From a virus: a stretch of 64,000 nucleotides of DNA. How positions within the stretch are numbered: the first letter of the stretch is position 1; every line of letters starts with the position of its first letter. Below are positions 3,618 to 48,648 of this stretch, piece by piece. The stretch is from positions 242 through 64,241 of IMG/VR virus record IMGVR_UViG_3300002036_000007; one strand, 5' to 3'. A program made the position numbers and the translations under genes. The notes beneath the pieces were generated by a model. That model made no database searches and was not told the DNA's origin. It saw nothing but the letters and a program-made list of their open reading frames with translations.

Positions 3618-4319
3618 ATGACAGTAAAAGATAGTACCAAACATTATTGCGTTTATGCGCTGCAAACCAATCTGGGTAACCAGAATGCTCTAAAAATTGG
3701 CATGACAGGAAATCTTGCTGAAAGAATATCAACAATACAAACATCAATGCCCGCGCCGCTGATTCTTTTAGGGCACTGGAACATGCCTTCAAAAGACCAG
3801 GCTGGAGTGTTCGAGCAGAGTATTCATCAGAAAAATCAAGCGCTAAAAATAAGCGGTGAGTGGTATGACGACCGAATATTAGAGAGTATTCCCGGTTTTG
3901 ATTGGCCTTCTACTCATCCGCAGTTTAAGAAGCTAAAAAAGCATCGCTTGCAGCTTAATTATGCTGCGCTGATGGAAGATAAATATTTCAACGATAAGAC
4001 AAGATTTTACTTTTCTATATGCGCAGCTGTAGAGAATGGCAGGCATATAAACAAAGAAATAACGGATATAGCTTTTTCCGCTGATGTTGAATACCGAAAA
4101 GCACGCCGTTTCATGAATGAGCTTGTTGAGAATGGAAAAGTAATTCGTACAGGAAAGCCGCGCCATTACAAGTATGAGCTTAATGAAATTTATTCGTGGC
4201 ATGGGTCAGAAGAAAGCAGAAACAATCGCGTTGCAAAGCGACAAAGGCAGCAACTAACAGAAGTTCAAAAAAAGGCTGTAAAAGCAAATATGTCGCTGCT
4301 CGATGGCGGCAAATCGTAA
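3618..4319 (+). CDS. GIY-YIG/T5orf172 (MUG113-like) domain plus C-terminal winged-HTH
   Basis: YCVYALQ...LKIGMTGNLAERISTIQT...GEWY; C-term MNELVENGKVIR...YELNEIYSWHG. Confidence 0.7.
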   Translation: MTVKDSTKHYCVYALQTNLGNQNALKIGMTGNLAERISTIQTSMPAPLILLGHWNMPSKDQAGVFEQSIHQKNQALKISGEWYDDRILESIPGFDWPSTHPQFKKLKKHRLQLNYAALMEDKYFNDKTRFYFSICAAVENGRHINKEITDIAFSADVEYRKARRFMNELVENGKVIRTGKPRHYKYELNEIYSWHGSEESRNNRVAKRQRQQLTEVQKKAVKANMSLLDGGKS

Positions 4320-4334
4320 ACCGGAGTAACCGAA

Positions 4335-4850
4335 TTGGAAAGACGAACATTCACTAGGGCGGCACTTGTCAGCCCGATTCTACTAACCACAACAGGATGC
4401 CAAACACTTATGGGTATTGACAAAGACACAGCAATTGACGCGGTCAAAGGTGGCTCAGCAGTAGCAGAAGCCAAAGACATGCATGACGAGATCATGTCTT
4501 ATTTAAATGGCGACGAAATAGCAACGAAAGCGTTATCAGAGCCGGTTGCGTTTTTCAAAGTCGGCGCTGACTTTCTCGAAGGTAAGCTCGATGTTCCAGT
4601 GCTTGATATCTTTGAGGCACAACCTGATTACGTTGAGGATGTCCCTGTCCAATGGGGAGCTGGCAAGGCTGTATTGAATGAATATGCAGAGCGCACAAAT
4701 CAGCCCATTCCAGCGTCAATCATGGCGTGGATTGGAAATGCAGAGGCAGGCTGGGAAGTAGTCAAGAAAGCTGCATCAGTACAAGACAAGATTGTAAAAG
4801 CTGTTGAGCTGTACAAGATTGTTAAGCCGTTTGCACTGATGGCTCTGTAG
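4335..4850 (+). CDS. lipoprotein with a twin-arginine-like signal, lysis region
   Basis: TTG start; MERRTFTRAALVSPILLTTTG-C lipobox. Confidence 0.65.
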   Translation: MERRTFTRAALVSPILLTTTGCQTLMGIDKDTAIDAVKGGSAVAEAKDMHDEIMSYLNGDEIATKALSEPVAFFKVGADFLEGKLDVPVLDIFEAQPDYVEDVPVQWGAGKAVLNEYAERTNQPIPASIMAWIGNAEAGWEVVKKAASVQDKIVKAVELYKIVKPFALMAL

Positions 4851-21137: not shown

Positions 21138-21710
21138 TTGAGGTCAAGCATGTCGAAAGATACTGAAGTTATAGAAAGCACACTGAATCCGAGGCAGATA
21201 CGATTTGCCCAAGAGTACTTGGTCGACCTAAATGCAACAGAGGCATACAAGCGGGCCGGCTATGAAACAAAAGACAACGATGTGGCAGGGGCTAACGCTG
21301 CGAGATTGCTAGCCGATGATAGGGTCAAAGCCCTAGTCGACCGCATGAAGATTGACCGCGAGCTCCGCACTCAGATAACGGCTGACAGGGTATTGGCTCA
21401 GGTGTATAGGCTTGCGTTCGCTGATATTCGAGGGCTGTACGGGGCAAATGGTGAGCATCTGCCGATACAGCAATTACCTGATGATTTGGCCGCTGCCATT
21501 CAGTCAGTGAAGGTTTCTGACCGAAGGGTGCCTAACTCTGAGACTGGCGATGAGTTTGAACAAGTCACTGAGTACAAGTTGGTCGACAAGAAAGCTACGG
21601 CCGAAATACTACTGAAGCACTTAGGCGAGCTCACTGAGAAAGTAGAGGTCGACGTGTCTGAGGGGATGATGCAAAGAATGCTTTCTGCTCGAGCAAGAGT
21701 TAAGAAATGA
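21138..21710 (+). CDS. terS: terminase small subunit
   Basis: LNPRQIRFAQEYLVDLNATEAYKRAGY...AARLL...ITADRVL...DKKATAEILLKHLG. Confidence 0.92.
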   Translation: MRSSMSKDTEVIESTLNPRQIRFAQEYLVDLNATEAYKRAGYETKDNDVAGANAARLLADDRVKALVDRMKIDRELRTQITADRVLAQVYRLAFADIRGLYGANGEHLPIQQLPDDLAAAIQSVKVSDRRVPNSETGDEFEQVTEYKLVDKKATAEILLKHLGELTEKVEVDVSEGMMQRMLSARARVKK

Positions 21711-23164
21711 CGGTCGGCTTTGCTAACAGTTTTGAAATTGAGCTCCAAACAGAAATATTCGAATTTTACGACGACCCGCTTGGTTATGCGATGTATGTGT
21801 GGCCATGGGGAGAAGAGGGAACACGGTTAGAGAATCACCCTGCACCCGATGACTGGCAATGCGAGGTGATGAATTACATCAGAGATCAGATGCTTGCTGA
21901 TCCTGAAGGCTTTCAGATTCGAGACGCCACAGCGTCAGGCCATGGCGTTGGAAAATCTGCGCTTCAGGCGATGATGGTACATTGGTTTCAGGCTACACGG
22001 TTTAAGCCGGCCGGTGTGACGACGGCTAACACGGCTTCGCAGTTGACGCTCAAGACAATGAGAGAGCTGTCCATATGGAACAGCGATGCCATCAACAGTC
22101 ATTGGTTTAAATGGTCAGTAACCAAATTCATGCGGGTTGGATATGAGCAAGATTGGTTTCAAAGCGCCGTTCCAAACTCTGAGCACAACAGCCAATCATT
22201 TGCTGGCCTTCATGGTGAAGAGGTGTTGGTCGTTTTTGACGAAGCCAGCACGATACCGCGCAGCATCTTTGAGGTAACGGAAGGTGCATTTACAACACCC
22301 AAAAACATCTGGTTGTTGTTCGGCAACCCAACAGAGAATACAGGCCCGTTCCGAGAAATATTTGGCGAAAAAAGAAAGTACTGGAATACGCGCCACATAG
22401 ATAGCCGCACAGCACGTATGGCCACGCTCAAGCCATCGAACATGAAGCAATTCGAAGACTGGGCCGAACAATACGGCGAGGACTCAGATTTCTTCAAGGT
22501 CCGCGTTAAGGGCGAATTCCCAGAACAAGCCAGCACGCAGTTCATCTCTCGATCAGTCGTAGCTAGGGCGCAAGGCTTTGAAGCACCAAGCCAGGAAGGC
22601 TTAATCAAAATGATGGGCGTTGATGTCGCACGCTACGGTGATGACTCAAGCGTGATAGCTCGCGTTCAGGGTCGCAAGCTTTATCCAATGATGGAGTTAA
22701 AGAAAACCGACACGATGACCACAGCGGCATGGGTAGCGGCTGAGATTAATCGATTCAAGCCGGACATGATCGTTATCGATGGCATTGGCGTAGGTGCTGG
22801 CGTTGTAGATCGTTTGATACAGCTTGGTTTTAACATCATCGAAGTAAACGCAGGCTCAATGCCGAGCGAATCGCACAAGAAAACCTGCACGAATAAACGC
22901 GCTGAGATGTGGACAGTGATGCGTGATTGGTTAGAGACAGCGGACATACCAGAGAAAGACACCGAGCTGTTCGACGATCTAACAGGGCTGACGTTTGCGC
23001 ATAACCGCGTTAACAACAAGCTGCAGTTAGAAAGCAAGGAAGAAGCAAAGAAGCGCGGGATTGCATCACCAGACAGAGCGGACGCATTAGCGCATTGCTT
23101 TGCGTTTCCGTATGTCCCAAAGATTGATGAAGTGCCAGAACCCGAACCAGACCCAGGATACTAA
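21707..23164 (+). CDS. terL: terminase large subunit
   Basis: Walker A ASGHGVGKS, Walker B VVFDEAS, GNP motif, nuclease GVDVARYGDD, C-term SPDRADALA. Confidence 0.95.
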   Translation: MTVGFANSFEIELQTEIFEFYDDPLGYAMYVWPWGEEGTRLENHPAPDDWQCEVMNYIRDQMLADPEGFQIRDATASGHGVGKSALQAMMVHWFQATRFKPAGVTTANTASQLTLKTMRELSIWNSDAINSHWFKWSVTKFMRVGYEQDWFQSAVPNSEHNSQSFAGLHGEEVLVVFDEASTIPRSIFEVTEGAFTTPKNIWLLFGNPTENTGPFREIFGEKRKYWNTRHIDSRTARMATLKPSNMKQFEDWAEQYGEDSDFFKVRVKGEFPEQASTQFISRSVVARAQGFEAPSQEGLIKMMGVDVARYGDDSSVIARVQGRKLYPMMELKKTDTMTTAAWVAAEINRFKPDMIVIDGIGVGAGVVDRLIQLGFNIIEVNAGSMPSESHKKTCTNKRAEMWTVMRDWLETADIPEKDTELFDDLTGLTFAHNRVNNKLQLESKEEAKKRGIASPDRADALAHCFAFPYVPKIDEVPEPEPDPGY

Positions 23165-25209: not shown

Positions 25210-25643
25210 GCAACATAATACTGCCAGTGGGAATGAATCCAAAAGCCGCAGCCAATGATGGTGTGGCGGCTATCACAGCGCCTTATCTTGACGCACAACA
25301 AACCAAGTATGAGAAAGGCAACCCGATAGCCTTGCAAAAGCTGTGCACTGATTGCGCGGTGATACTGCAGAACGAATACAACGGTAATGGGCATTTTGCA
25401 TGGGGCTGCGCTCCCACGCCTGATGGGTCAATGATCAATATCCGATTGTATGCCGATGGGCTGCACGGTCGGTACGGCTGGCAGATTAAAACCACTGATT
25501 TACAGCAGGAAACCGGGCGCCGAAAAGCGCTGATCTTTGCCGGTGGCGAGATATTAGAGCGCTATAACATTGAAGGGAAAAAGCAAGCCGCAGAGTCTAA
25601 GAGATTGCGTGATACCCGAGGCGAGGTAATACCAGAGCTATGA
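25206..25643 (+). CDS. hypothetical protein preceding portal
   Basis: Coupled to the portal gene by overlap. Confidence 0.6.
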   Translation: MSNIILPVGMNPKAAANDGVAAITAPYLDAQQTKYEKGNPIALQKLCTDCAVILQNEYNGNGHFAWGCAPTPDGSMINIRLYADGLHGRYGWQIKTTDLQQETGRRKALIFAGGEILERYNIEGKKQAAESKRLRDTRGEVIPEL

Positions 25644-28027
25644 GATCCCAGGTCGCAGCAGGTCTATCCGACAATCTATCGGATGGTACGTATGGGCCAG
25701 GCGGTATGCCTGTTGCGCAGGATGAAAAGGACACGCGAACGCCTGAACAAATGGAGGCGGATAGGCAGGACTCGATTACTTTGCTTGAGTTCCGTCAGTC
25801 TATCGCTGATTCAACCCACTACATGGACACGAATTACCGCAGGCAGTGGGAGAGCAACATTGCCAACTTTCAGGGACGACATCCAGCGGGTTCGAGGTAC
25901 CACACGAACGGTTACAAGTTCCGTTCAAAGCTACATATGCCAAAGGTGCGCGCGGCTGAGAAGCGGTGGAGTGCTGCTTTAACATCTGCATTCTTCTCTA
26001 CTCGCGACGCGCTGGTAGTCGAGGCTGAGAACCAGAACGACAAGCAGCAAGCGGCGAGCGCTGCGCTGTGGAAACAGGTCATGCAGTACCGGCTGATGAA
26101 GACGATGCCGTGGTTTCAGACCGTGCTAGGTGCTGGCCAGGATGCATTTGTGAATGGTGTTTGTATTACTCACAATTTCTGGCGCTACGAAGAGGACGGC
26201 GACGGTAACGTCATTCACGACACGCCTGCGTGTGATCTAGTGCCGATTGAGAATTTACGTTTTAGCCCGGCTGCAGATTGGCGCGACCCGATAAACGATT
26301 CAGAATACCTTGATCACATCATGCCGATGACGGTCAATGCAATTAAGGCAAAGATGGCAACTGGAGAGTGGGCCTATGCGCCTGATTCACTCATTGCTGC
26401 TGCTACTCGCGACTATGACTCTACAAGCCATGCAAGACAGGACACAGCGACCGACACAGACAAGGCCGACACGGTTGCAGGCCATCAGATCGCGTACGTT
26501 CACAAGCACATCAAGCGAGAACAGGGCATTGACTACATTTTCTTTGTGCTGGGTCAAGAGCATTTACTGACCGTCCCGACACGTCTTGATAGCGTGAACC
26601 CTAACGGTATTCGTAACTACACGTTAGGCCATGTCGATATCGAAGCGCACAAGGTCTACGCGCAATCACCAGTACAGCAGATGGAATCGTTGCTCGCTTC
26701 ATTGAATGAGAGCGTTAACATGCGCAAGGATAACGTCAGGCTGGCATTGAATAAGCGCTACACGGTCAAGCGCGGTAGTCCGATTGATATACCGCAGCTC
26801 ATGCGAAATGTTCCCGGTGGAACAATCATGGTCAACGACCACACAGACGTTGAGCCGTTAGAGACAAATGACGTTACCGCGTCGAGCTATAAGGAACAGG
26901 AATTCGACGGTGCTATGTTTGATGAGATAGCTGGTACGTTTAACTCCAGTTCGATCAACACCAACAGGCGCATGGGTGAGACTGTGGGCGGTATGGAATT
27001 GTTGGCCTCTGATGTCAACGTGGTGACTGAGCACAAGCTCGAAGTGTTCGCCAATACCTGGATGGGTCCGACGCTTGAGCAGCTTTTTTTGTTAGAGCAG
27101 GCGTACGAAACTGACTTTGTGATTATGGCAATGGCGGCGAATGACGCCGATATTCATAAGCAATACGGCGTTGATGAAATCACTACGGAAATGATCAATC
27201 AGAATTTAATGGTATCAATCAACTTTGGCGTGGATGCCACTAACCCAGCCAGGGCGATAGACAAGCTCGGCATTTATATTCAGCACGCGCAGCTTTTAGG
27301 CAAACAATTAGACACTGATGAAGTGCTTAACGAACTGGCCGGACGCATGGGCTACGACAATGGCGGTCGATTCCTGCTAGACGAACAGCAGCAAGCAGAA
27401 CAAGCGCAGAATCAGCAGCCGTCACCAGAGCAACAACAGGCTGAAGCGCAAGCAGCATCAGAGCAATTGAAAGCGCAAGTGGCTGAGATGAAAATGCAGG
27501 TTGATAGCCAGAAATTGCAGCTTGAAGGTCAAAAGCTAGAAATGACCAAAATGAAGCAAGATCAGGATTTCCAGCTTGCACAAGCGAAGCTTGAGGCCGA
27601 CATAACGGCTAAACGCGAACAGCTAGCGGTGCAGCGTGACATAGCCGAAGAGAGCACAGAAACACAGATCGGCATAGCAATGGTCAACGACAAGACCACG
27701 CGCGAAACAGCCGCTCTGCAGGCTGAGACAGCGATACAAGCCAAGATCATGGATGGTGAGATAGCCACGCAAGCGCAGGAAGTGCAGCGCGAAGCTAAGC
27801 AGATCGATAGCCAGGTAGCCGCGCGCGGTCAAGATATCCAGCGCGAAGCCAAGCAGCAAGACACCCAGACAGCGCGGCAAGGGCAGGAAGTAACGCGAGA
27901 AGCTAACCATTTGAAGGATAGGCAGGCTGCAAATGCGGTAAAATCAAAGGCCGAATCCGACAAAGCGAAATCTGATGAGAGCAGGCGAACTGGCCGAGAT
28001 AATGGCAAAGATCGACCCAAAACGTGA
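25640..28027 (+). CDS. portal protein (podovirus type) with a long C-terminal coiled-coil barrel
   Basis: 795 aa after terL; LNESVNMRKDNVRLALNKRY, ETVGGMELL and a Q-rich coiled-coil tail. Confidence 0.85.
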   Translation: MRSQVAAGLSDNLSDGTYGPGGMPVAQDEKDTRTPEQMEADRQDSITLLEFRQSIADSTHYMDTNYRRQWESNIANFQGRHPAGSRYHTNGYKFRSKLHMPKVRAAEKRWSAALTSAFFSTRDALVVEAENQNDKQQAASAALWKQVMQYRLMKTMPWFQTVLGAGQDAFVNGVCITHNFWRYEEDGDGNVIHDTPACDLVPIENLRFSPAADWRDPINDSEYLDHIMPMTVNAIKAKMATGEWAYAPDSLIAAATRDYDSTSHARQDTATDTDKADTVAGHQIAYVHKHIKREQGIDYIFFVLGQEHLLTVPTRLDSVNPNGIRNYTLGHVDIEAHKVYAQSPVQQMESLLASLNESVNMRKDNVRLALNKRYTVKRGSPIDIPQLMRNVPGGTIMVNDHTDVEPLETNDVTASSYKEQEFDGAMFDEIAGTFNSSSINTNRRMGETVGGMELLASDVNVVTEHKLEVFANTWMGPTLEQLFLLEQAYETDFVIMAMAANDADIHKQYGVDEITTEMINQNLMVSINFGVDATNPARAIDKLGIYIQHAQLLGKQLDTDEVLNELAGRMGYDNGGRFLLDEQQQAEQAQNQQPSPEQQQAEAQAASEQLKAQVAEMKMQVDSQKLQLEGQKLEMTKMKQDQDFQLAQAKLEADITAKREQLAVQRDIAEESTETQIGIAMVNDKTTRETAALQAETAIQAKIMDGEIATQAQEVQREAKQIDSQVAARGQDIQREAKQQDTQTARQGQEVTREANHLKDRQAANAVKSKAESDKAKSDESRRTGRDNGKDRPKT

Positions 28028-42803: not shown

Positions 42804-42822
42804 GAACGCACCATTTATTTAA

Positions 42823-43346: not shown

Positions 43347-43634
43347 ATGGCCCTATTTAATAATAGCCGTATTTCCACAGATAACATCCCCCGATCATTA
43401 ACATCGCTAGAACTGCGCAGAATCACTGGTAAAAATACACCTATCGAGCAGTTGAACGTTTTTGCAACACTTGGCATACCAGCACACCCAAGAAATCCAA
43501 CCGGCTACCATATTATCGAATGTTTGGCATACACCAATGAGGTACGCCCGTTTTTTACTGATGACGAATGGGCTGCTATTGACGATGAAAATATTGGCAC
43601 TTTATTACTAGAAGATTTTCTGAAGCAAGCCTGA
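43347..43634 (+). CDS. DUF4224-like (excisionase-like) small protein
   Basis: LTSLELRRITGK...EQLNVFATLGIP resembles LT..EL..LTG...Q...L...GI. Confidence 0.4.
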   Translation: MALFNNSRISTDNIPRSLTSLELRRITGKNTPIEQLNVFATLGIPAHPRNPTGYHIIECLAYTNEVRPFFTDDEWAAIDDENIGTLLLEDFLKQA

Positions 43635-44039
43635 AAGCTGAGCCACGGATGGCACAAAACCAAACAAAGCAGGGTGTCTCACGTACAGATAAGCTACACC
43701 CAGTATAACAGCCAGTAGAGCAAGGCCAAACCAGCGCCATCCAGTACGCTTGTACTCGCCTGTAGTACATCGTTCAGCTACTTTGATTGCATCGTTAACC
43801 GACACCTTAAAGAACTCTCTGCGTGGATTAGCGCGGCAATGCTTCAGCTCTCTGAAAATAGCCGATTCAGTGGCCCTACGATCAGGCACATCAATCTCAT
43901 ACTGAACTTTGAAAGGATAGGGCACCGACGTATTAAACAGAGAATCTAGCCGCTGTCGTAGCTTTGTGGTCATGCCGATTTTGCACAGACCGGGCATCGA
44001 TTTGTTGGTGAGTATGTAGACCTTGCCGGATTTAGCCAT
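43608..44039 (-). CDS. T5orf172/GIY-YIG domain protein with a C-terminal TM helix
   Basis: GKVYILTNKSMPGLCKIGMT...SVPYPF...REFF; TM WFGLALLAVILGVAYLYV. Confidence 0.8.
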   Translation of the reverse strand: MAKSGKVYILTNKSMPGLCKIGMTTKLRQRLDSLFNTSVPYPFKVQYEIDVPDRRATESAIFRELKHCRANPRREFFKVSVNDAIKVAERCTTGEYKRTGWRWFGLALLAVILGVAYLYVRHPALFGFVPSVAQLSGLLQKIF

Positions 44040-44046
44040 GATGTTT

Positions 44047-44292
44047 TTATGAGTGACTGTAATTGGACAACTGGTGTCGCTTAGCTTGACTATAACCAAT
44101 CAGACTTTTGTCAAACTTTTGTATGTGATGGGTGCGTATTTTCTTTAACGCATTATTCCCGATCTCGTTTATCGCTTTGCGGTTGACGCCGCACACTTCT
44201 GCTATCTCACAATCTCTCAATGTCTGCCCACGCTCGGCATGTTCAACCAGAGCAGCAAGACCGATATCGATATCAGTGTTTCTCTTTCTCAT
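44047..44292 (-). CDS. sigma70 region-4-like HTH protein
   Basis: TLRDCEIAEVCGVNRKAINEIGNNALKKIR. Confidence 0.65.
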   Translation of the reverse strand: MRKRNTDIDIGLAALVEHAERGQTLRDCEIAEVCGVNRKAINEIGNNALKKIRTHHIQKFDKSLIGYSQAKRHQLSNYSHS

Positions 44293-45070
44293 GTTGATTC
44301 ACCTTTGGGTTATAAGAATTGCCAGTGCGTTCAAGTACTTTGCTAATTTCTGATTCTGGTAGCTCCTGGTAGATCGTTGTGGTTGCTGCGCTCTTGTGAC
44401 CAAGTACCTGTTGAACTGTTTTCAAGTGCTCGCCTTGATCGTGCAGCATTTTAGTGGCTAACGTTCTGCGTCCTGAATGGCTCGAAGCGCGATCAATGCC
44501 GGTCCATTGGAACATTTTGGACATGTGCATTTGCAGGGTGTTCGGAATGTATGCACCGCCTTTCTGAGAAAGTATCAGCGGTGCGTTAGGCTTCAGTGTC
44601 TCGCCTGAATCAATCCTATCGTCCAGGTAGCGAATGATTGCGTTCTGTAGGTCTGTATCAGCCAGCGGTAGCTCGCGCGTCTTACCGGCTCGCTTTTTTA
44701 GGGCGGGGTAGTAGTCTGATGGCTCCATTGTGCTTCCATCAATACCCATCTTATAAACCAAGCGAAGAATGCGGTCAAACTCATCGATAGGATGGGTAAC
44801 GCTGGTTCTAACACTCTTAGCCTTTCCATCAGCGCCCTTGGTAAACGACTTGGGCAGCACCAGCACATCCTTTAAATCATACTCTGTGCCGTCTATGTGT
44901 GCGACCTGACGAACGCGCAGCAACGATATCTCCTTTACACGCAATCCCAACTTAAAACTAATCTGCATGATCAATGCATTTTTGGCAGGGTGACGGTGCT
45001 TTTCAATATTAGCGAAAAGCTGCTCAACCTCGGTATTCGAGAGTACTTTTGCTTGACCGTCTTTTGCCAT
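44273..45070 (-). CDS. tyrosine recombinase, catalytic domain only
   Basis: LGLRVKEI (R), K, SSHSGRRT (HxxR), LGHKSAATTTIY (H/Y). Confidence 0.9.
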   Translation of the reverse strand: MAKDGQAKVLSNTEVEQLFANIEKHRHPAKNALIMQISFKLGLRVKEISLLRVRQVAHIDGTEYDLKDVLVLPKSFTKGADGKAKSVRTSVTHPIDEFDRILRLVYKMGIDGSTMEPSDYYPALKKRAGKTRELPLADTDLQNAIIRYLDDRIDSGETLKPNAPLILSQKGGAYIPNTLQMHMSKMFQWTGIDRASSHSGRRTLATKMLHDQGEHLKTVQQVLGHKSAATTTIYQELPESEISKVLERTGNSYNPKVNQHEKEKH

Positions 45071-45871: not shown

Positions 45872-45968
45872 GTATCACCCAATCAATAAACATAAGAATG
45901 TATCCAATGGCCACGAATGCCGCGTAAATCACAAGGCCACAGGCAGCTAGTTTGATGAACTTACTCAC
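45864..45968 (-). CDS. 34-aa single-TM peptide (not in ORF track)
   Basis: GTG start; MSKFIKLAACGLVIYAAFVAIGYILMFIDWVIHV; overlaps both neighbours. Confidence 0.5.
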   Translation of the reverse strand: MSKFIKLAACGLVIYAAFVAIGYILMFIDWVIHV

Positions 45969-46288
45969 GGATTCAAGTTAAGCAACTGACTGGTTTCATT
46001 GTCCAGTCCGTATCCTTCAGGAATGCGCTTGTCAACGTACTCATCCCTGCGCTGTTGTTTGCGCTGTCTTGTCATCCAGGGCTCAAGGAATGTCCAGTGG
46101 CCAAACTCATCCAGGTGACATCTTTTGTTTACACCATAAACGTTAACAACGCGCTCCCCAGGAACACTCTTGAATCCACCAGATGGCCTGCACAACCAGT
46201 CAGCGCTAAGCGCATCGGATATACCACCGCCTTTAGCGCAGCCTGCCAGCACCCAAACAGATGCCACAATAAGCAATGCGGCTTTCAT
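45965..46288 (-). CDS. lipoprotein
   Basis: MKAALLIVASVWVLAG-C lipobox. Confidence 0.7.
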   Translation of the reverse strand: MKAALLIVASVWVLAGCAKGGGISDALSADWLCRPSGGFKSVPGERVVNVYGVNKRCHLDEFGHWTFLEPWMTRQRKQQRRDEYVDKRIPEGYGLDNETSQLLNLNP

Positions 46289-46797
46289 TGGACACCTTTC
46301 GCTGTCAGATAGTTGAGTTCACTTTGACTAAGGGCTGCCGGTTGAATCGGTTCGTCTAGCTGTTCTGGTTCGTACAGAAAAGCTGGGCCGCGATCTGTGT
46401 CTACGTATTTGGCGTGTATCAAGCCCAGTTCGCGCTCGATGTTATGCGCCTTTTGTATCATCGGTATGGTCATTGAATTGACCGGTGTTGCACGAGTTTG
46501 CTCTGCCATTTGCATGAGCACCCTGACTTGGTTCTGGTCTATTTTTTCATCATCGGTTAATTCGACCTCCTGTAACGACTCCTGTTGCATCACCACGATT
46601 TGCTGACCATTTGGGTGCCGCTGCACTAGCTGACGTTCTATAACAGGCTGGCTAGGCATCTGGTTAATGATGATCGGCTGTAGCGGTTGTGCTGGCGTTT
46701 GCACTTGCACCGAACGGTCAGGTTGCAAGAACGGCGAATTTAACGTGCAGCCGCTCGCTAGAACTGCGCTTAGTAATGCTGTGGTTCGTAGTTTCAT
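46285..46797 (-). CDS. lipoprotein with a Q/P-rich linker
   Basis: MKLRTTALLSAVLASG-C lipobox. Confidence 0.7.
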   Translation of the reverse strand: MKLRTTALLSAVLASGCTLNSPFLQPDRSVQVQTPAQPLQPIIINQMPSQPVIERQLVQRHPNGQQIVVMQQESLQEVELTDDEKIDQNQVRVLMQMAEQTRATPVNSMTIPMIQKAHNIERELGLIHAKYVDTDRGPAFLYEPEQLDEPIQPAALSQSELNYLTAKGVQ

Positions 46798-46805
46798 TGT
46801 GGCCC

Positions 46806-47336
46806 CTATTTAACTAAAGAAAACTTTGCCTTGACAGGCTTGGTAACGATGTATGATCTGCCGCTCTTTTTTAAGTACTTCTGTTTGGACAATTCAATTT
46901 TGACCTTGTTGATCAAAGGATCGCCCATGCTGTATGGCTTGGCTCGACCAGTCTTATTGATAAATGCAGAGCCGTCTGGAATCACATCATTGTCGATATC
47001 GCGCTTTATCCACTCCACCATTTTCAATAGGTGGTCTGAATTCACTGTGCCCGTTTTGCCTTTACCTTTGCCGGTTTTGGTTGGCGTACGCTTAGCTTTC
47101 CTCTTGGCTGCAGATTTCTTCTTGGGCGCGGCCTTTTTTCTAACAACTGGCTTCTTACCCTTGCTGGCTACCTTTCTAACTATCCTGCTACCGGGATTGG
47201 AAGCGATTGATCGAATATCAACGACCTTCTTATCATCAGACAGTGGTTCAACCGGCTTATTGTTGGTCTCGGCAAGCCTGGTATCGGCGGTGCTGTTTCC
47301 ACTCTGACCGCCGAAATTTCGACTTGCCGTTACCCC
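46806..47336 (-). CDS. -1 frame extension of the 47330-48142 membrane protein (Lys-rich histone-like segment plus HTH-like end)
   Basis: Frame open from the slippery site to the stop at 46806, with no ATG/GTG/TTG for ~96 codons before the GTG at 47045. Confidence 0.7.
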   Translation of the reverse strand, partial: GVTASRNFGGQSGNSTADTRLAETNNKPVEPLSDDKKVVDIRSIASNPGSRIVRKVASKGKKPVVRKKAAPKKKSAAKRKAKRTPTKTGKGKGKTGTVNSDHLLKMVEWIKRDIDNDVIPDGSAFINKTGRAKPYSMGDPLINKVKIELSKQKYLKKSGRSYIVTKPVKAKFSLVK

Positions 47337-48142
47337 TTTTTTGGCGATACCTCTTCACCTTCGTCTATGTCGATGGTCAGGTTTCGCTTGCCGTTCAGGT
47401 TGCTCAACATAATGGTCATGCTGAGCGGAAACAGCGTTAAGAAAAACGCCTTCGCAAGCGCCCAAGCAAACGGCGAAACGTGAGTCTTCTCTTCCATCTT
47501 GTCTAGCGACTTTTGAAGCGGGCTGAGTGATGACGCATCGGTCGCCTGATTAACTTCAGCGGTTGCTTGATCAAGCTGCCTATATTGCGCCTGTGCTGCT
47601 TTGTCGGTCACTGAAACATAGTCGGAATTAGTCTCGCCAAGTCTGTCTAATTGCCCTCCTGCTGCCTTTGCTCTCGCATTAGCAATGCCCATAAGTGCTT
47701 GGCCTCTTGGCGAATTATCGACCTCGGCCTGAATGCCGGTGAATGTCTCATTCATAAACATGGCCGTACTGGTGTAGATACTGATGCCTTCACCTATAAG
47801 CAGTATGCAGCCCATTAAGAAAACATTCAGATGCCTTCCAGCGCTGTAGTTAAGACCAATGTAATAAGCTGAAATATGAGCGCAAATAATGAACAAGCAA
47901 AATGTAAAAACAGTGGCAACCTTTACCCATGTTTCAGCCTGTGCGGCTTGCGCCAACCCAAATCCGCTGGCCTGTCTTAGCGATATAGCGATACAAACCC
48001 AGCCCAGTACGATTCCAATCCAAAGCAGTTTTTGCCAGGATATGATTCGCTTCAAATGAAGCACGACATTTTTAACGGGTTGTTTTGGTTTCTCGTCAAG
48101 CTTCTTCCTGCCCCACCATGTACGCTCTGCTGCTGCACTCAT
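47330..48142 (-). CDS. membrane protein: 3 TM + coiled-coil-like loop + 1 TM; ends in a slippery site
   Basis: Four hydrophobic helices; ends CCA AAA AAG GGG TAA. Confidence 0.75.
   Translation of the reverse strand: MSAAAERTWWGRKKLDEKPKQPVKNVVLHLKRIISWQKLLWIGIVLGWVCIAISLRQASGFGLAQAAQAETWVKVATVFTFCLFIICAHISAYYIGLNYSAGRHLNVFLMGCILLIGEGISIYTSTAMFMNETFTGIQAEVDNSPRGQALMGIANARAKAAGGQLDRLGETNSDYVSVTDKAAQAQYRQLDQATAEVNQATDASSLSPLQKSLDKMEEKTHVSPFAWALAKAFFLTLFPLSMTIMLSNLNGKRNLTIDIDEGEEVSPKKG
47336..47342 (-). other. putative -1 ribosomal frameshift heptamer A_AAA_AAG
   Basis: Minus strand AGGTGAAGAGGTATCGCC-AAAAAAG-GGGTAA; SD-like GAGGT upstream; stem TCGGCGGT/ACCGCCGA downstream. Confidence 0.7.
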
Positions 48143-48648
48143 TTGGAATTACCTCGATTTTGTTGTGCTGTTAGATGGCTATCACCAGCCCAAAACGACG
48201 CAGTGAAAGACGCGACAATGCCAAGCGCGAAAAGTATCTGCATATCGATTTTCATTGGCAGGAATATCGCCACAGCCAGAAAAGTGACGCCGGAACACAT
48301 CGACCCAATTTGGACACTGATTCGATATGTGAAAAAAACAAACGGAATCAGGGCCAATTGCATCAACACCGCCAGCATTGCTCGCTCTATATCAATCAAA
48401 TGCTCGGGTGATGCGTCGTGGATCGCAAAGCCAGTTGCAGCCCACATGGCGACACCAGGCAAGCCAGAGGCGATCAGCGGTGCTAGCTGTCCATAACAGT
48501 CCTTATCGACCGCCGCAAAGCTATTGGGGTCTTGCGCTACAGAGCTTCTACCGGGCGGCAGAGCTTCAATGACTGGCAGATATTGCGACGGTTCGAGCGC
48601 AACAGCAAGCGCACTCTCCCCGCCGTTGCTATGATTAGCGTGGGACAT
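48139..48648 (-). CDS. 4-TM membrane protein
   Basis: Hydrophobic helices in the C-terminal two thirds; GGAG RBS. Confidence 0.7.
   Translation of the reverse strand: MSHANHSNGGESALAVALEPSQYLPVIEALPPGRSSVAQDPNSFAAVDKDCYGQLAPLIASGLPGVAMWAATGFAIHDASPEHLIDIERAMLAVLMQLALIPFVFFTYRISVQIGSMCSGVTFLAVAIFLPMKIDMQILFALGIVASFTASFWAGDSHLTAQQNRGNSK

Follow-up and report, generated by a model that had tools for sequence, protein, structure and literature searches.

Introduction

Can ribosomes change frame at the end of a phage membrane-protein gene, so that part of the protein made carries a DNA-binding tail? This question is raised by a 270-codon gene in a 64-kb stretch of DNA, which was drawn from a 66,178-bp IMG/VR viral contig (IMGVR_UViG_3300002036_000007) and is referred to here as the window, with its own lineage denoted WIN. 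A first-pass annotation of the window had proposed that a −1 shift at the heptamer A_AAA_AAG gives products of 270 and 445 amino acids (aa), the longer one ending in a basic tail that resembles a helix-turn-helix (HTH) protein. Programmed frameshifts in double-stranded DNA (dsDNA) phages are well known mainly from tail chaperones and from some capsid genes. Here we describe the same site in seven lineages, a conservation that supports this core proposal, and we consider it probable that a −1 programmed ribosomal frameshift of the dnaX/IS3 type yields isoforms of 270 and 445 aa, the occurrence and the rate of the shift being predicted from sequence.

A slippery heptamer lies one codon ahead of the stop

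The 3' end of the 270-aa gene reads CCA AAA AAG GGG TAA. The heptamer, the gene end and the register were found at 47342–47336 as the first-pass annotation had given them, together with the Shine-Dalgarno (SD)-like GAGGT that it had placed a few nucleotides upstream. The site consists of the following elements, the first taken from the open reading frame (ORF) list and a hydropathy scan that detected its transmembrane (TM) segments.

47330..48142, minus strand: 0-frame gene of the 270-aa four-TM membrane protein
47336..47342, minus strand: slippery heptamer A_AAA_AAG in X_XXY_YYZ register, one codon ahead of TAA
47349..47353, minus strand: SD-like GAGGT, a possible upstream stimulator, 6 nt 5' of the heptamer
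46806..47336, minus strand: −1 extension of 176 codons plus a TAG stop (46808–46806), which joined to residues 1–269 would give 445 aa

The −1 frame is open from 47354 to 46806, a total of 182 codons from stop to stop with 176 of these past the heptamer, and when the WIN tail was shuffled it remained open in 1 of 10,000 trials. The earliest ATG, GTG or TTG in this frame is a GTG at 47045, which has no SD sequence and is codon 98 after the heptamer. This leaves 97 start-less codons, where about 96 had been claimed for the 176-codon frame. The junction peptide at the shift, VSPKK/GVTASR, had likewise been read correctly, and the distance from the −1 stop to the next ATG (46797) needed correction, being 8 nt and not 9 nt. 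A second site that is formally in X_XXY_YYZ register, A_AAG_GGG, overlaps the main heptamer at 47333–47339 (minus strand); it was set aside as a slip site because it is not conserved in relatives.

Relatives of the membrane part and the tail

Searches of a phage record collection with blastn and tblastn found no relative of either part, and pattern-based locus searches in IMG/VR, JGI metagenome contigs and GTDB genome contigs also returned none. A scan for the DNA pattern formed by the heptamer and a conserved hairpin base gave 41 viral and at least 120 genomic matches, all of which were shown by tblastn to be chance. Using large protein collections we identified two proteins with ~65% identity to the membrane part (P0003 and P0004), two more distant membrane-part relatives through profile searching (P0008 and P0009), further homologues that are the L005 and L010 genes, and two tail-like proteins (P0005 and P0010). 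The tail was also searched exhaustively with phmmer against 1.84 billion representatives, and P0005 alone was matched.

The contigs of these relatives (L002–L011) represent six further lineages, L002, L003, L005, L006, L009 and L010, with membrane-part protein identities to WIN of 17–66%. Gene callers either omitted the tail in the six related contigs, cut it short or began it at an internal start. The public runs that contain the window sequence carry the label algae metagenome, and in the same algae-metagenome study a third run yielded a contig whose match to the window is confined to 47151–47191, a 41-nt segment of the basic linker with 90–95% likeness, beyond which the two sequences diverge; this contig may derive from a further relative that has not been sampled.

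The heptamer and the −1 frame are conserved and under selection

The homologue check that the first-pass annotation had called for showed that the heptamer, a nearby stop and a −1 ORF are kept in all seven lineages, the ORF being long in six and 47 codons in L009. An exact A6G is present in A_AAA_AAG register in every lineage, 0–11 codons ahead of the 0-frame stop, and the Lys-Lys that it encodes is the sole invariant pair in an otherwise unconserved membrane-protein C-terminus. Across the genes of the window, A_AAA_AAG encodes 7 of 64 Lys-Lys dipeptides (~11%), or 7 per ~19,700 codon positions, so codon choice alone is far from explaining its presence in seven of seven.

Past the heptamer, the −1 frame is open for 153–186 codons in six of the seven lineages (shuffling probability ≤4e-4 each), and the codons that follow the heptamer without a start number 97 in WIN, 81 in L003, 127 in L006 and 50 in L005, with the first canonical start of L006 falling within the folded domain. 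The ratio of non-synonymous to synonymous substitution rates (dN/dS) in the −1 frame was 0.16–0.27 for whole tails and 0.19–0.22 for the start-less parts; for WIN compared with L002 these values were 0.16 over the whole tail and 0.20 over 96 aligned start-less codons. The −1 frame is therefore under purifying selection in six of seven lineages, including its start-less part, and the values in that part indicate that the start-less codons are translated.

In L005, L006, L009 and L010 the 0 frame runs 6–11 codons past the heptamer (L005:766–798, L006:2080–2112, L010:1484–1504 and L009:4142–4168), and both frames are conserved across this overlap of ~10 codons. The 0-frame ends are aromatic and basic (GGFWSRLKS, GGFWSRLRS, WGFFK and GSWWKR), and the same dual-coding bases read VLEQVE.VKPSERTQ, also conserved, in the −1 frame. 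This suggests that the short isoform is also under selection, and the conservation of both frames in four lineages argues that both isoforms are wanted. L005, alone among the lineages, has a second in-register A_AAA_AAG (L005:717–723), situated 14 codons upstream of the conserved one and within the open −1 frame.

These comparisons also bear on whether a single 445-aa gene has been split, either by a 1-nt assembly error or by a recent frameshift mutation. Such an explanation would be favoured by the origin of the contig in a metagenome assembly and by the position of the break in an A6G4 homopolymer region, but the same frame arrangement occurs in seven diverged lineages whose flanks and stop positions differ, and both frames are under selection. 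In addition, independent assemblies or samples give identical sequence for three lineages, and an independent Logan assembly, made from a public run, agrees with 46800–48045 at every position. The 1-nt indel that had been named as a refuting outcome is thus absent from an independent assembly of the reads, and the other such outcome, homologues with a continuous ORF, was likewise not encountered in two very large protein collections: no fused in-frame homologue was present among 5.8 billion clusters and 1.84 billion representatives, and profile searches returned no protein of ~445 aa. We regard an artefact or a decayed gene as essentially excluded.

A predicted two-tier hairpin begins 6 nt downstream of the heptamer

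We folded the 81 nt that follow the heptamer, and in WIN this gave a minimum free energy of −35.7 kcal/mol with z = −6.74 from 200 shuffles, none of which was as stable. The predicted structure has these parts.

47270..47329, minus strand: two-tier RNA hairpin, beginning 6 nt 3' of the heptamer
47329–47321 with 47278–47270, minus strand: outer 9-bp stem, formed of CGGCAAG and two variable pairs
47314–47307 with 47291–47284, minus strand: inner 8-bp stem TCGGCGGT/ACCGCCGA, enclosed by the outer stem

The 8-bp stem of the first-pass annotation is present, but its position had been misjudged, since it is the inner tip of a larger hairpin that starts 6 nt and not ~20 nt downstream. Similar stability was obtained for L002 (−35.6 kcal/mol, z = −5.3) and L003 (−36.7 kcal/mol, z = −3.8), and in the predicted folds of all three lineages a 9-bp stem starts exactly 6 nt past the heptamer and closes an inner stem. 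The outer stem shows a single compensatory change (C-G to G-C) and two changes on one side only, all of which preserve pairing. In the inner stem, a C-G pair of WIN is replaced by U-A in L002, and L003 forms this stem from different sequence. In L005, L006, L009 and L010 a 6-bp stem (GGGUYS, with a partner ending CCC) is found at +6 nt. We also considered whether the hairpin is an intrinsic terminator and rejected this, because no T-run follows it; a terminator scan called nothing.

Upstream of the heptamer, an SD-like core (GGAG, GAGG or AGGA) is located 4–14 nt away in five of the seven lineages, compared with 4.5% of background positions, and is absent in L003 and L005. As a control, we examined the window's remaining six A_AAA_AAG heptamers that are in register, which are followed by −1 ORFs of 1–27 codons and by folds of −10.7 to −16.9 kcal/mol. 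The arrangement at the site described here, with 176 codons and −35.7 kcal/mol, is far outside what chance would produce. Two in-register heptamers (3935–3941 and 4268–4274) are found in a 233-aa gene of unknown function (window 3618–4319, plus strand, PHROG 8130), with −1 ORFs of 5 and 27 codons and no strong structure after them, and these look like chance sites and formed part of the control.

The same two isoforms would arise if RNA polymerase slipped on the A6 run and some transcripts gained one extra A, and homopolymer A runs are a known substrate for such realignment (A9 in Thermus dnaX, cited in PMC3711429). However, every one of the seven lineages has a run of exactly six A, against the figure of more than seven A quoted in that paper, the invariant register and the terminal G matter for the re-pairing of tRNA and not for the polymerase, and a hairpin placed 6 nt downstream is an element that stimulates ribosomal shifting. 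Polymerase slippage is in our judgement very improbable.

Predicted membrane topology and fold of the tail

A hydropathy scan placed the four TM segments at residues 37–55, 75–93, 105–125 and 228–246. The N-terminus contains nine Lys and Arg residues (+9) and an acidic loop of 102 aa separates TM3 and TM4, from which the positive-inside rule predicts that both termini are cytoplasmic and the long loop periplasmic. An Atlas feature search with the membrane part matched unnamed viral clusters only.

Residues 1–99 of the tail are modelled as disordered, and the tail can be divided as follows.

47046..47189, minus strand: strongly basic disordered linker, tail residues 50–97 (21 Lys and Arg, no Asp or Glu; predicted local distance difference test (pLDDT) score <60, no secondary structure)
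46809..47045, minus strand: small C-terminal domain, tail residues 98–176, modelled as winged-helix-like

The whole linker is roughly 95 aa in length and its second half has a net charge of +21 across 48 residues. A Lys-rich block ending TGKGKG is kept in WIN, L002, L005 and L010, and L003 and L006 are basic without this motif.

In the model of the C-terminal domain, a helix at 100–115, a helix at 139–151 and a β-hairpin at 155–164 have pLDDT values of 84–89, block means across tail residues 101–170 are 69–89, and the middle helix of a three-helix bundle is not modelled. Using Foldseek against the PDB, the top 44 matches were all GntR-type winged-HTH domains, most of them from transcription regulators. 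The values are weak (E = 0.02–0.3; probability 0.93–1.0; template modelling score up to 0.68, measured against isolated domains of 74–75 aa) and the match list is uniform, which lends fold-level support, as a GntR-like winged helix, to the HTH-like end that had first been proposed. No member of the tail alignment matched a winged-HTH family in Pfam. Two further hits serve as leads only, namely a DsrD-like match at 0.84 in an Atlas feature search with tail residues 95–176, and an eS25 match (E = 0.022) in a PDB profile search with the tail alignment; both DsrD and eS25 are winged-helix proteins, and eS25 is formed of a Lys-rich tail followed by the winged helix. We conclude with moderate confidence that the tail ends in a winged-helix-like domain, and its modelled fold and its charge suggest that the tail may bind DNA.

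Weighing a frameshift against separate translation of the tail

Several observations weigh against the frameshift. The family is small and its six further lineages all come from metagenome contigs, neither the membrane part nor the tail has a match in Pfam or PHROGs, and among the public runs searched no RNA run containing the locus was found. The structural models were built from alignments of seven sequences, and both the all-helical model of the membrane part, which is of low confidence, and that of the tail have low mean pLDDT values (58 and 63, respectively). The folds downstream of the heptamer in L005, L006, L009 and L010 are weak (z −0.1 to −2.4), and the stimulator in these lineages is therefore uncertain. 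The SD-like spacing of 6–7 nt is also shorter than that of dnaX, which is 10 nt.

The remaining points favour two separate genes, with the tail translated alone from a non-canonical start or by termination-reinitiation and the heptamer being merely a conserved Lys-Lys; a CTG in WIN that aligns with an ATG in L002 is one possible start of this kind. This ATG lies 31 codons past the heptamer, and in L010 a GTG follows it by one codon. Both codons are used by gene callers, and separate initiation is formally possible in these two lineages. Across the first 31 codons dN/dS is only 0.55, and because this stretch overlaps the hairpin its conservation may reflect RNA structure and not protein. In L009, the −1 ORF extends only 47 codons past the heptamer, is basic and ends inside the basic segment, and the folded domain is a free-standing 73-aa ORF (4232–4453) in the 0 frame with its own ATG (region L009:4129–4453). 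Either the tail is genuinely split in this lineage or the one contig that represents it, an old one, contains a 1-nt indel.

Against separate genes, WIN, L003, L005 and L006 have no ATG, GTG or TTG for 50–127 codons despite purifying selection, the first start in L006 is inside the folded domain, and the GTG at 47045 in WIN lacks an SD sequence. Separate translation would also leave unexplained the hairpin placed exactly 6 nt past the heptamer. Furthermore, the Lys-Lys pair is encoded as AAA AAG after a codon ending in A in seven of seven lineages compared with the ~11% expected, and the −1 frame is always open before the heptamer. On balance, we consider two separate genes improbable, and a −1 programmed frameshift remains the explanation that we favour.

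Genomic setting of the proposed frameshift gene

The window is part of a tailed phage genome, as judged from a large terminase gene at 21707–23164 and from the protein encoded at 25640–28027, which matches PHROG 332, annotated as a head-tail adaptor (connector). The plus-strand structural block ends at 42822 and the frameshift gene falls outside it, in a minus-strand envelope module at 45.5–48.6 kb, while the right end of the window contains recombination and immunity genes (ERF, YqaJ, S24 repressor and resolvase). The immediate neighbours, all taken from the ORF list, are these.

48139..48648, minus strand: upstream 169-aa membrane protein, the first gene of the module, whose stop overlaps the start of the frameshift gene
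46285..46797, minus strand: downstream 170-aa predicted lipoprotein with a signal peptide ending LASGC, a module partner
45965..46288, minus strand: second predicted lipoprotein, 107 aa, a module partner with a homologue in L005

Homologues of the 169-aa membrane protein occupy the equivalent position in L002, L003, L006 and L010, and those of the 170-aa lipoprotein come immediately after the tail ORF in L005, L006 and L010. The order kept across relatives is thus a membrane protein of ~150–170 aa, the four-TM gene with its tail ORF, a lipoprotein of 160–170 aa and a small lipoprotein. The module neighbours had no match in Pfam or PHROGs, and a reading of the module as a lysis cassette was rejected, as it contains no lysis domain.

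On the opposite strand to the tail ORF, and mirroring it, is an antisense ORF of 158 aa (window 46831–47307, plus strand), which is most likely no gene but a shadow cast by the Lys-rich coding strand. On the 3' side of the module and on the same strand (43608–45070, minus) are a short tyrosine-recombinase-like gene of 265 aa and a gene with a T5orf172 domain. A serine resolvase is encoded at 50853–51596 on the strand opposite to the tyrosine-recombinase-like gene, and with both genes present this phage has two kinds of recombinase.

Discussion

Under the frameshift reading, most ribosomes would read CCA AAA AAG GGG and stop, giving the 270-aa four-TM protein. A fraction would pause while AAA occupies the P site and AAG the A site, as a result of the stable hairpin proposed to act from 6 nt downstream, and GAGGT, 6 nt upstream, may assist the slip. 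The two tRNA-Lys would then move back one base onto A AAA AA, and a further 176 codons would be read in the −1 frame. The 445-aa isoform would contain the same membrane body followed by a cytoplasmic disordered linker and a winged-helix-like domain of ~70 aa. Both isoforms may co-assemble with the neighbouring membrane protein and the lipoproteins as an envelope complex, and the cytoplasmic tail of the long isoform would hold DNA at the inner membrane, a tethering that is suggested by the architecture of the protein and that might serve as a replication site, in prophage maintenance or in exclusion.

A more detailed and tentative picture, which we think could be right but would not bet on, is that the shift fixes the ratio of tailed and tail-less subunits in a complex of two inner-membrane proteins and two lipoproteins, with the tails holding DNA so that the complex is a motor-less, FtsK-like anchor. 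If true, this anchor might localise or segregate the phage or prophage genome, or intercept incoming DNA, and it would represent a DNA-membrane system of a new kind in phages and the first known frameshift to add a DNA-binding module to a membrane protein.

The mechanism itself is of a known kind, but in the part of the recoding review PMC5009743 that was searched (its first 300,000 characters) the gene family, its genome location and its product are not described, and no bacterial or phage membrane protein is extended by a frameshift. A term search of the GeneTack survey likewise returned no phage membrane-protein frameshift cluster. The locus would be a case of conserved recoding in a non-structural, envelope-associated module, joining a membrane body to a cytoplasmic nucleic-acid-binding tail, in an event that gene callers miss every time. 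It also provides a compact frameshift cassette with a covarying stimulator, which is testable, and a foothold on the function of an anonymous six-gene envelope module in phages of algae-associated marine metagenomes.

Comparison with known systems

Pfam, PHROGs and profile searches detected no sequence similarity, and general searches gave no named relative. The possible likenesses to the three membrane systems considered first are ones of architecture or function. SpdB2 of Streptomyces, with which the first-pass annotation had compared the long isoform, is a membrane protein that has been reported to bind DNA. In FtsK/SpoIIIE proteins, four TM segments at the N-terminus are combined with a long disordered linker and, at the C-terminus, a winged-helix-like DNA-binding module (FtsK gamma), an order of parts that is predicted here as well, although the phage protein has no motor or ATPase domain. 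A functional analogy, as a lead only, can be drawn with p16.7 of phage phi29, a membrane-anchored DNA-binding protein that organises replication in a Gram-positive host. In both cases a phage protein would combine a TM anchor with a cytoplasmic C-terminal DNA-binding domain, but p16.7 has one TM segment and involves no recoding, whereas four TM segments and a frameshift are proposed here.

Among recoded phage genes, the tail assembly chaperones G/GT of lambda-like phages offer a −1 shift that is conserved in dsDNA phages and sets the proportions of a short and a C-terminally extended form; this frameshift was reportedly described by Xu and colleagues in 2004. The G/GT pair lies between the tail tube and tape-measure genes, while the present locus is outside the structural block. 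We ruled out that the gene is itself a tail chaperone, as it encodes a four-TM protein in a leftward envelope module beside an integrase-like gene.

In the IS3 family (IS911 and IS150), an A_AAA_AAG-type slip with a downstream structure joins OrfA to a second ORF and domain as OrfAB, and as proposed here the fused form has no start of its own. The order of domains is different, as IS3 elements encode the DNA-binding HTH upstream and the catalytic domain in the ORF that follows, whereas here the membrane domain is upstream and the DNA-binding-like domain downstream, and the locus contains neither a transposase nor inverted repeats.

E. coli dnaX (tau/gamma) belongs to an unrelated protein family, and its SD-like element is spaced 10 nt from the heptamer in place of the 6–7 nt found here. 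In the arrangement of its signals it resembles the phage site, with an identical A_AAA_AAG, a stem-loop 6 nt downstream, an upstream SD-like element (cassette features as cited in PMC3711429) and two isoforms that have a common N-terminal body. In dnaX, however, a stop is reached almost immediately after the shift, which yields the shorter product, whereas in the phage gene the shift would bypass the stop and add 176 residues.

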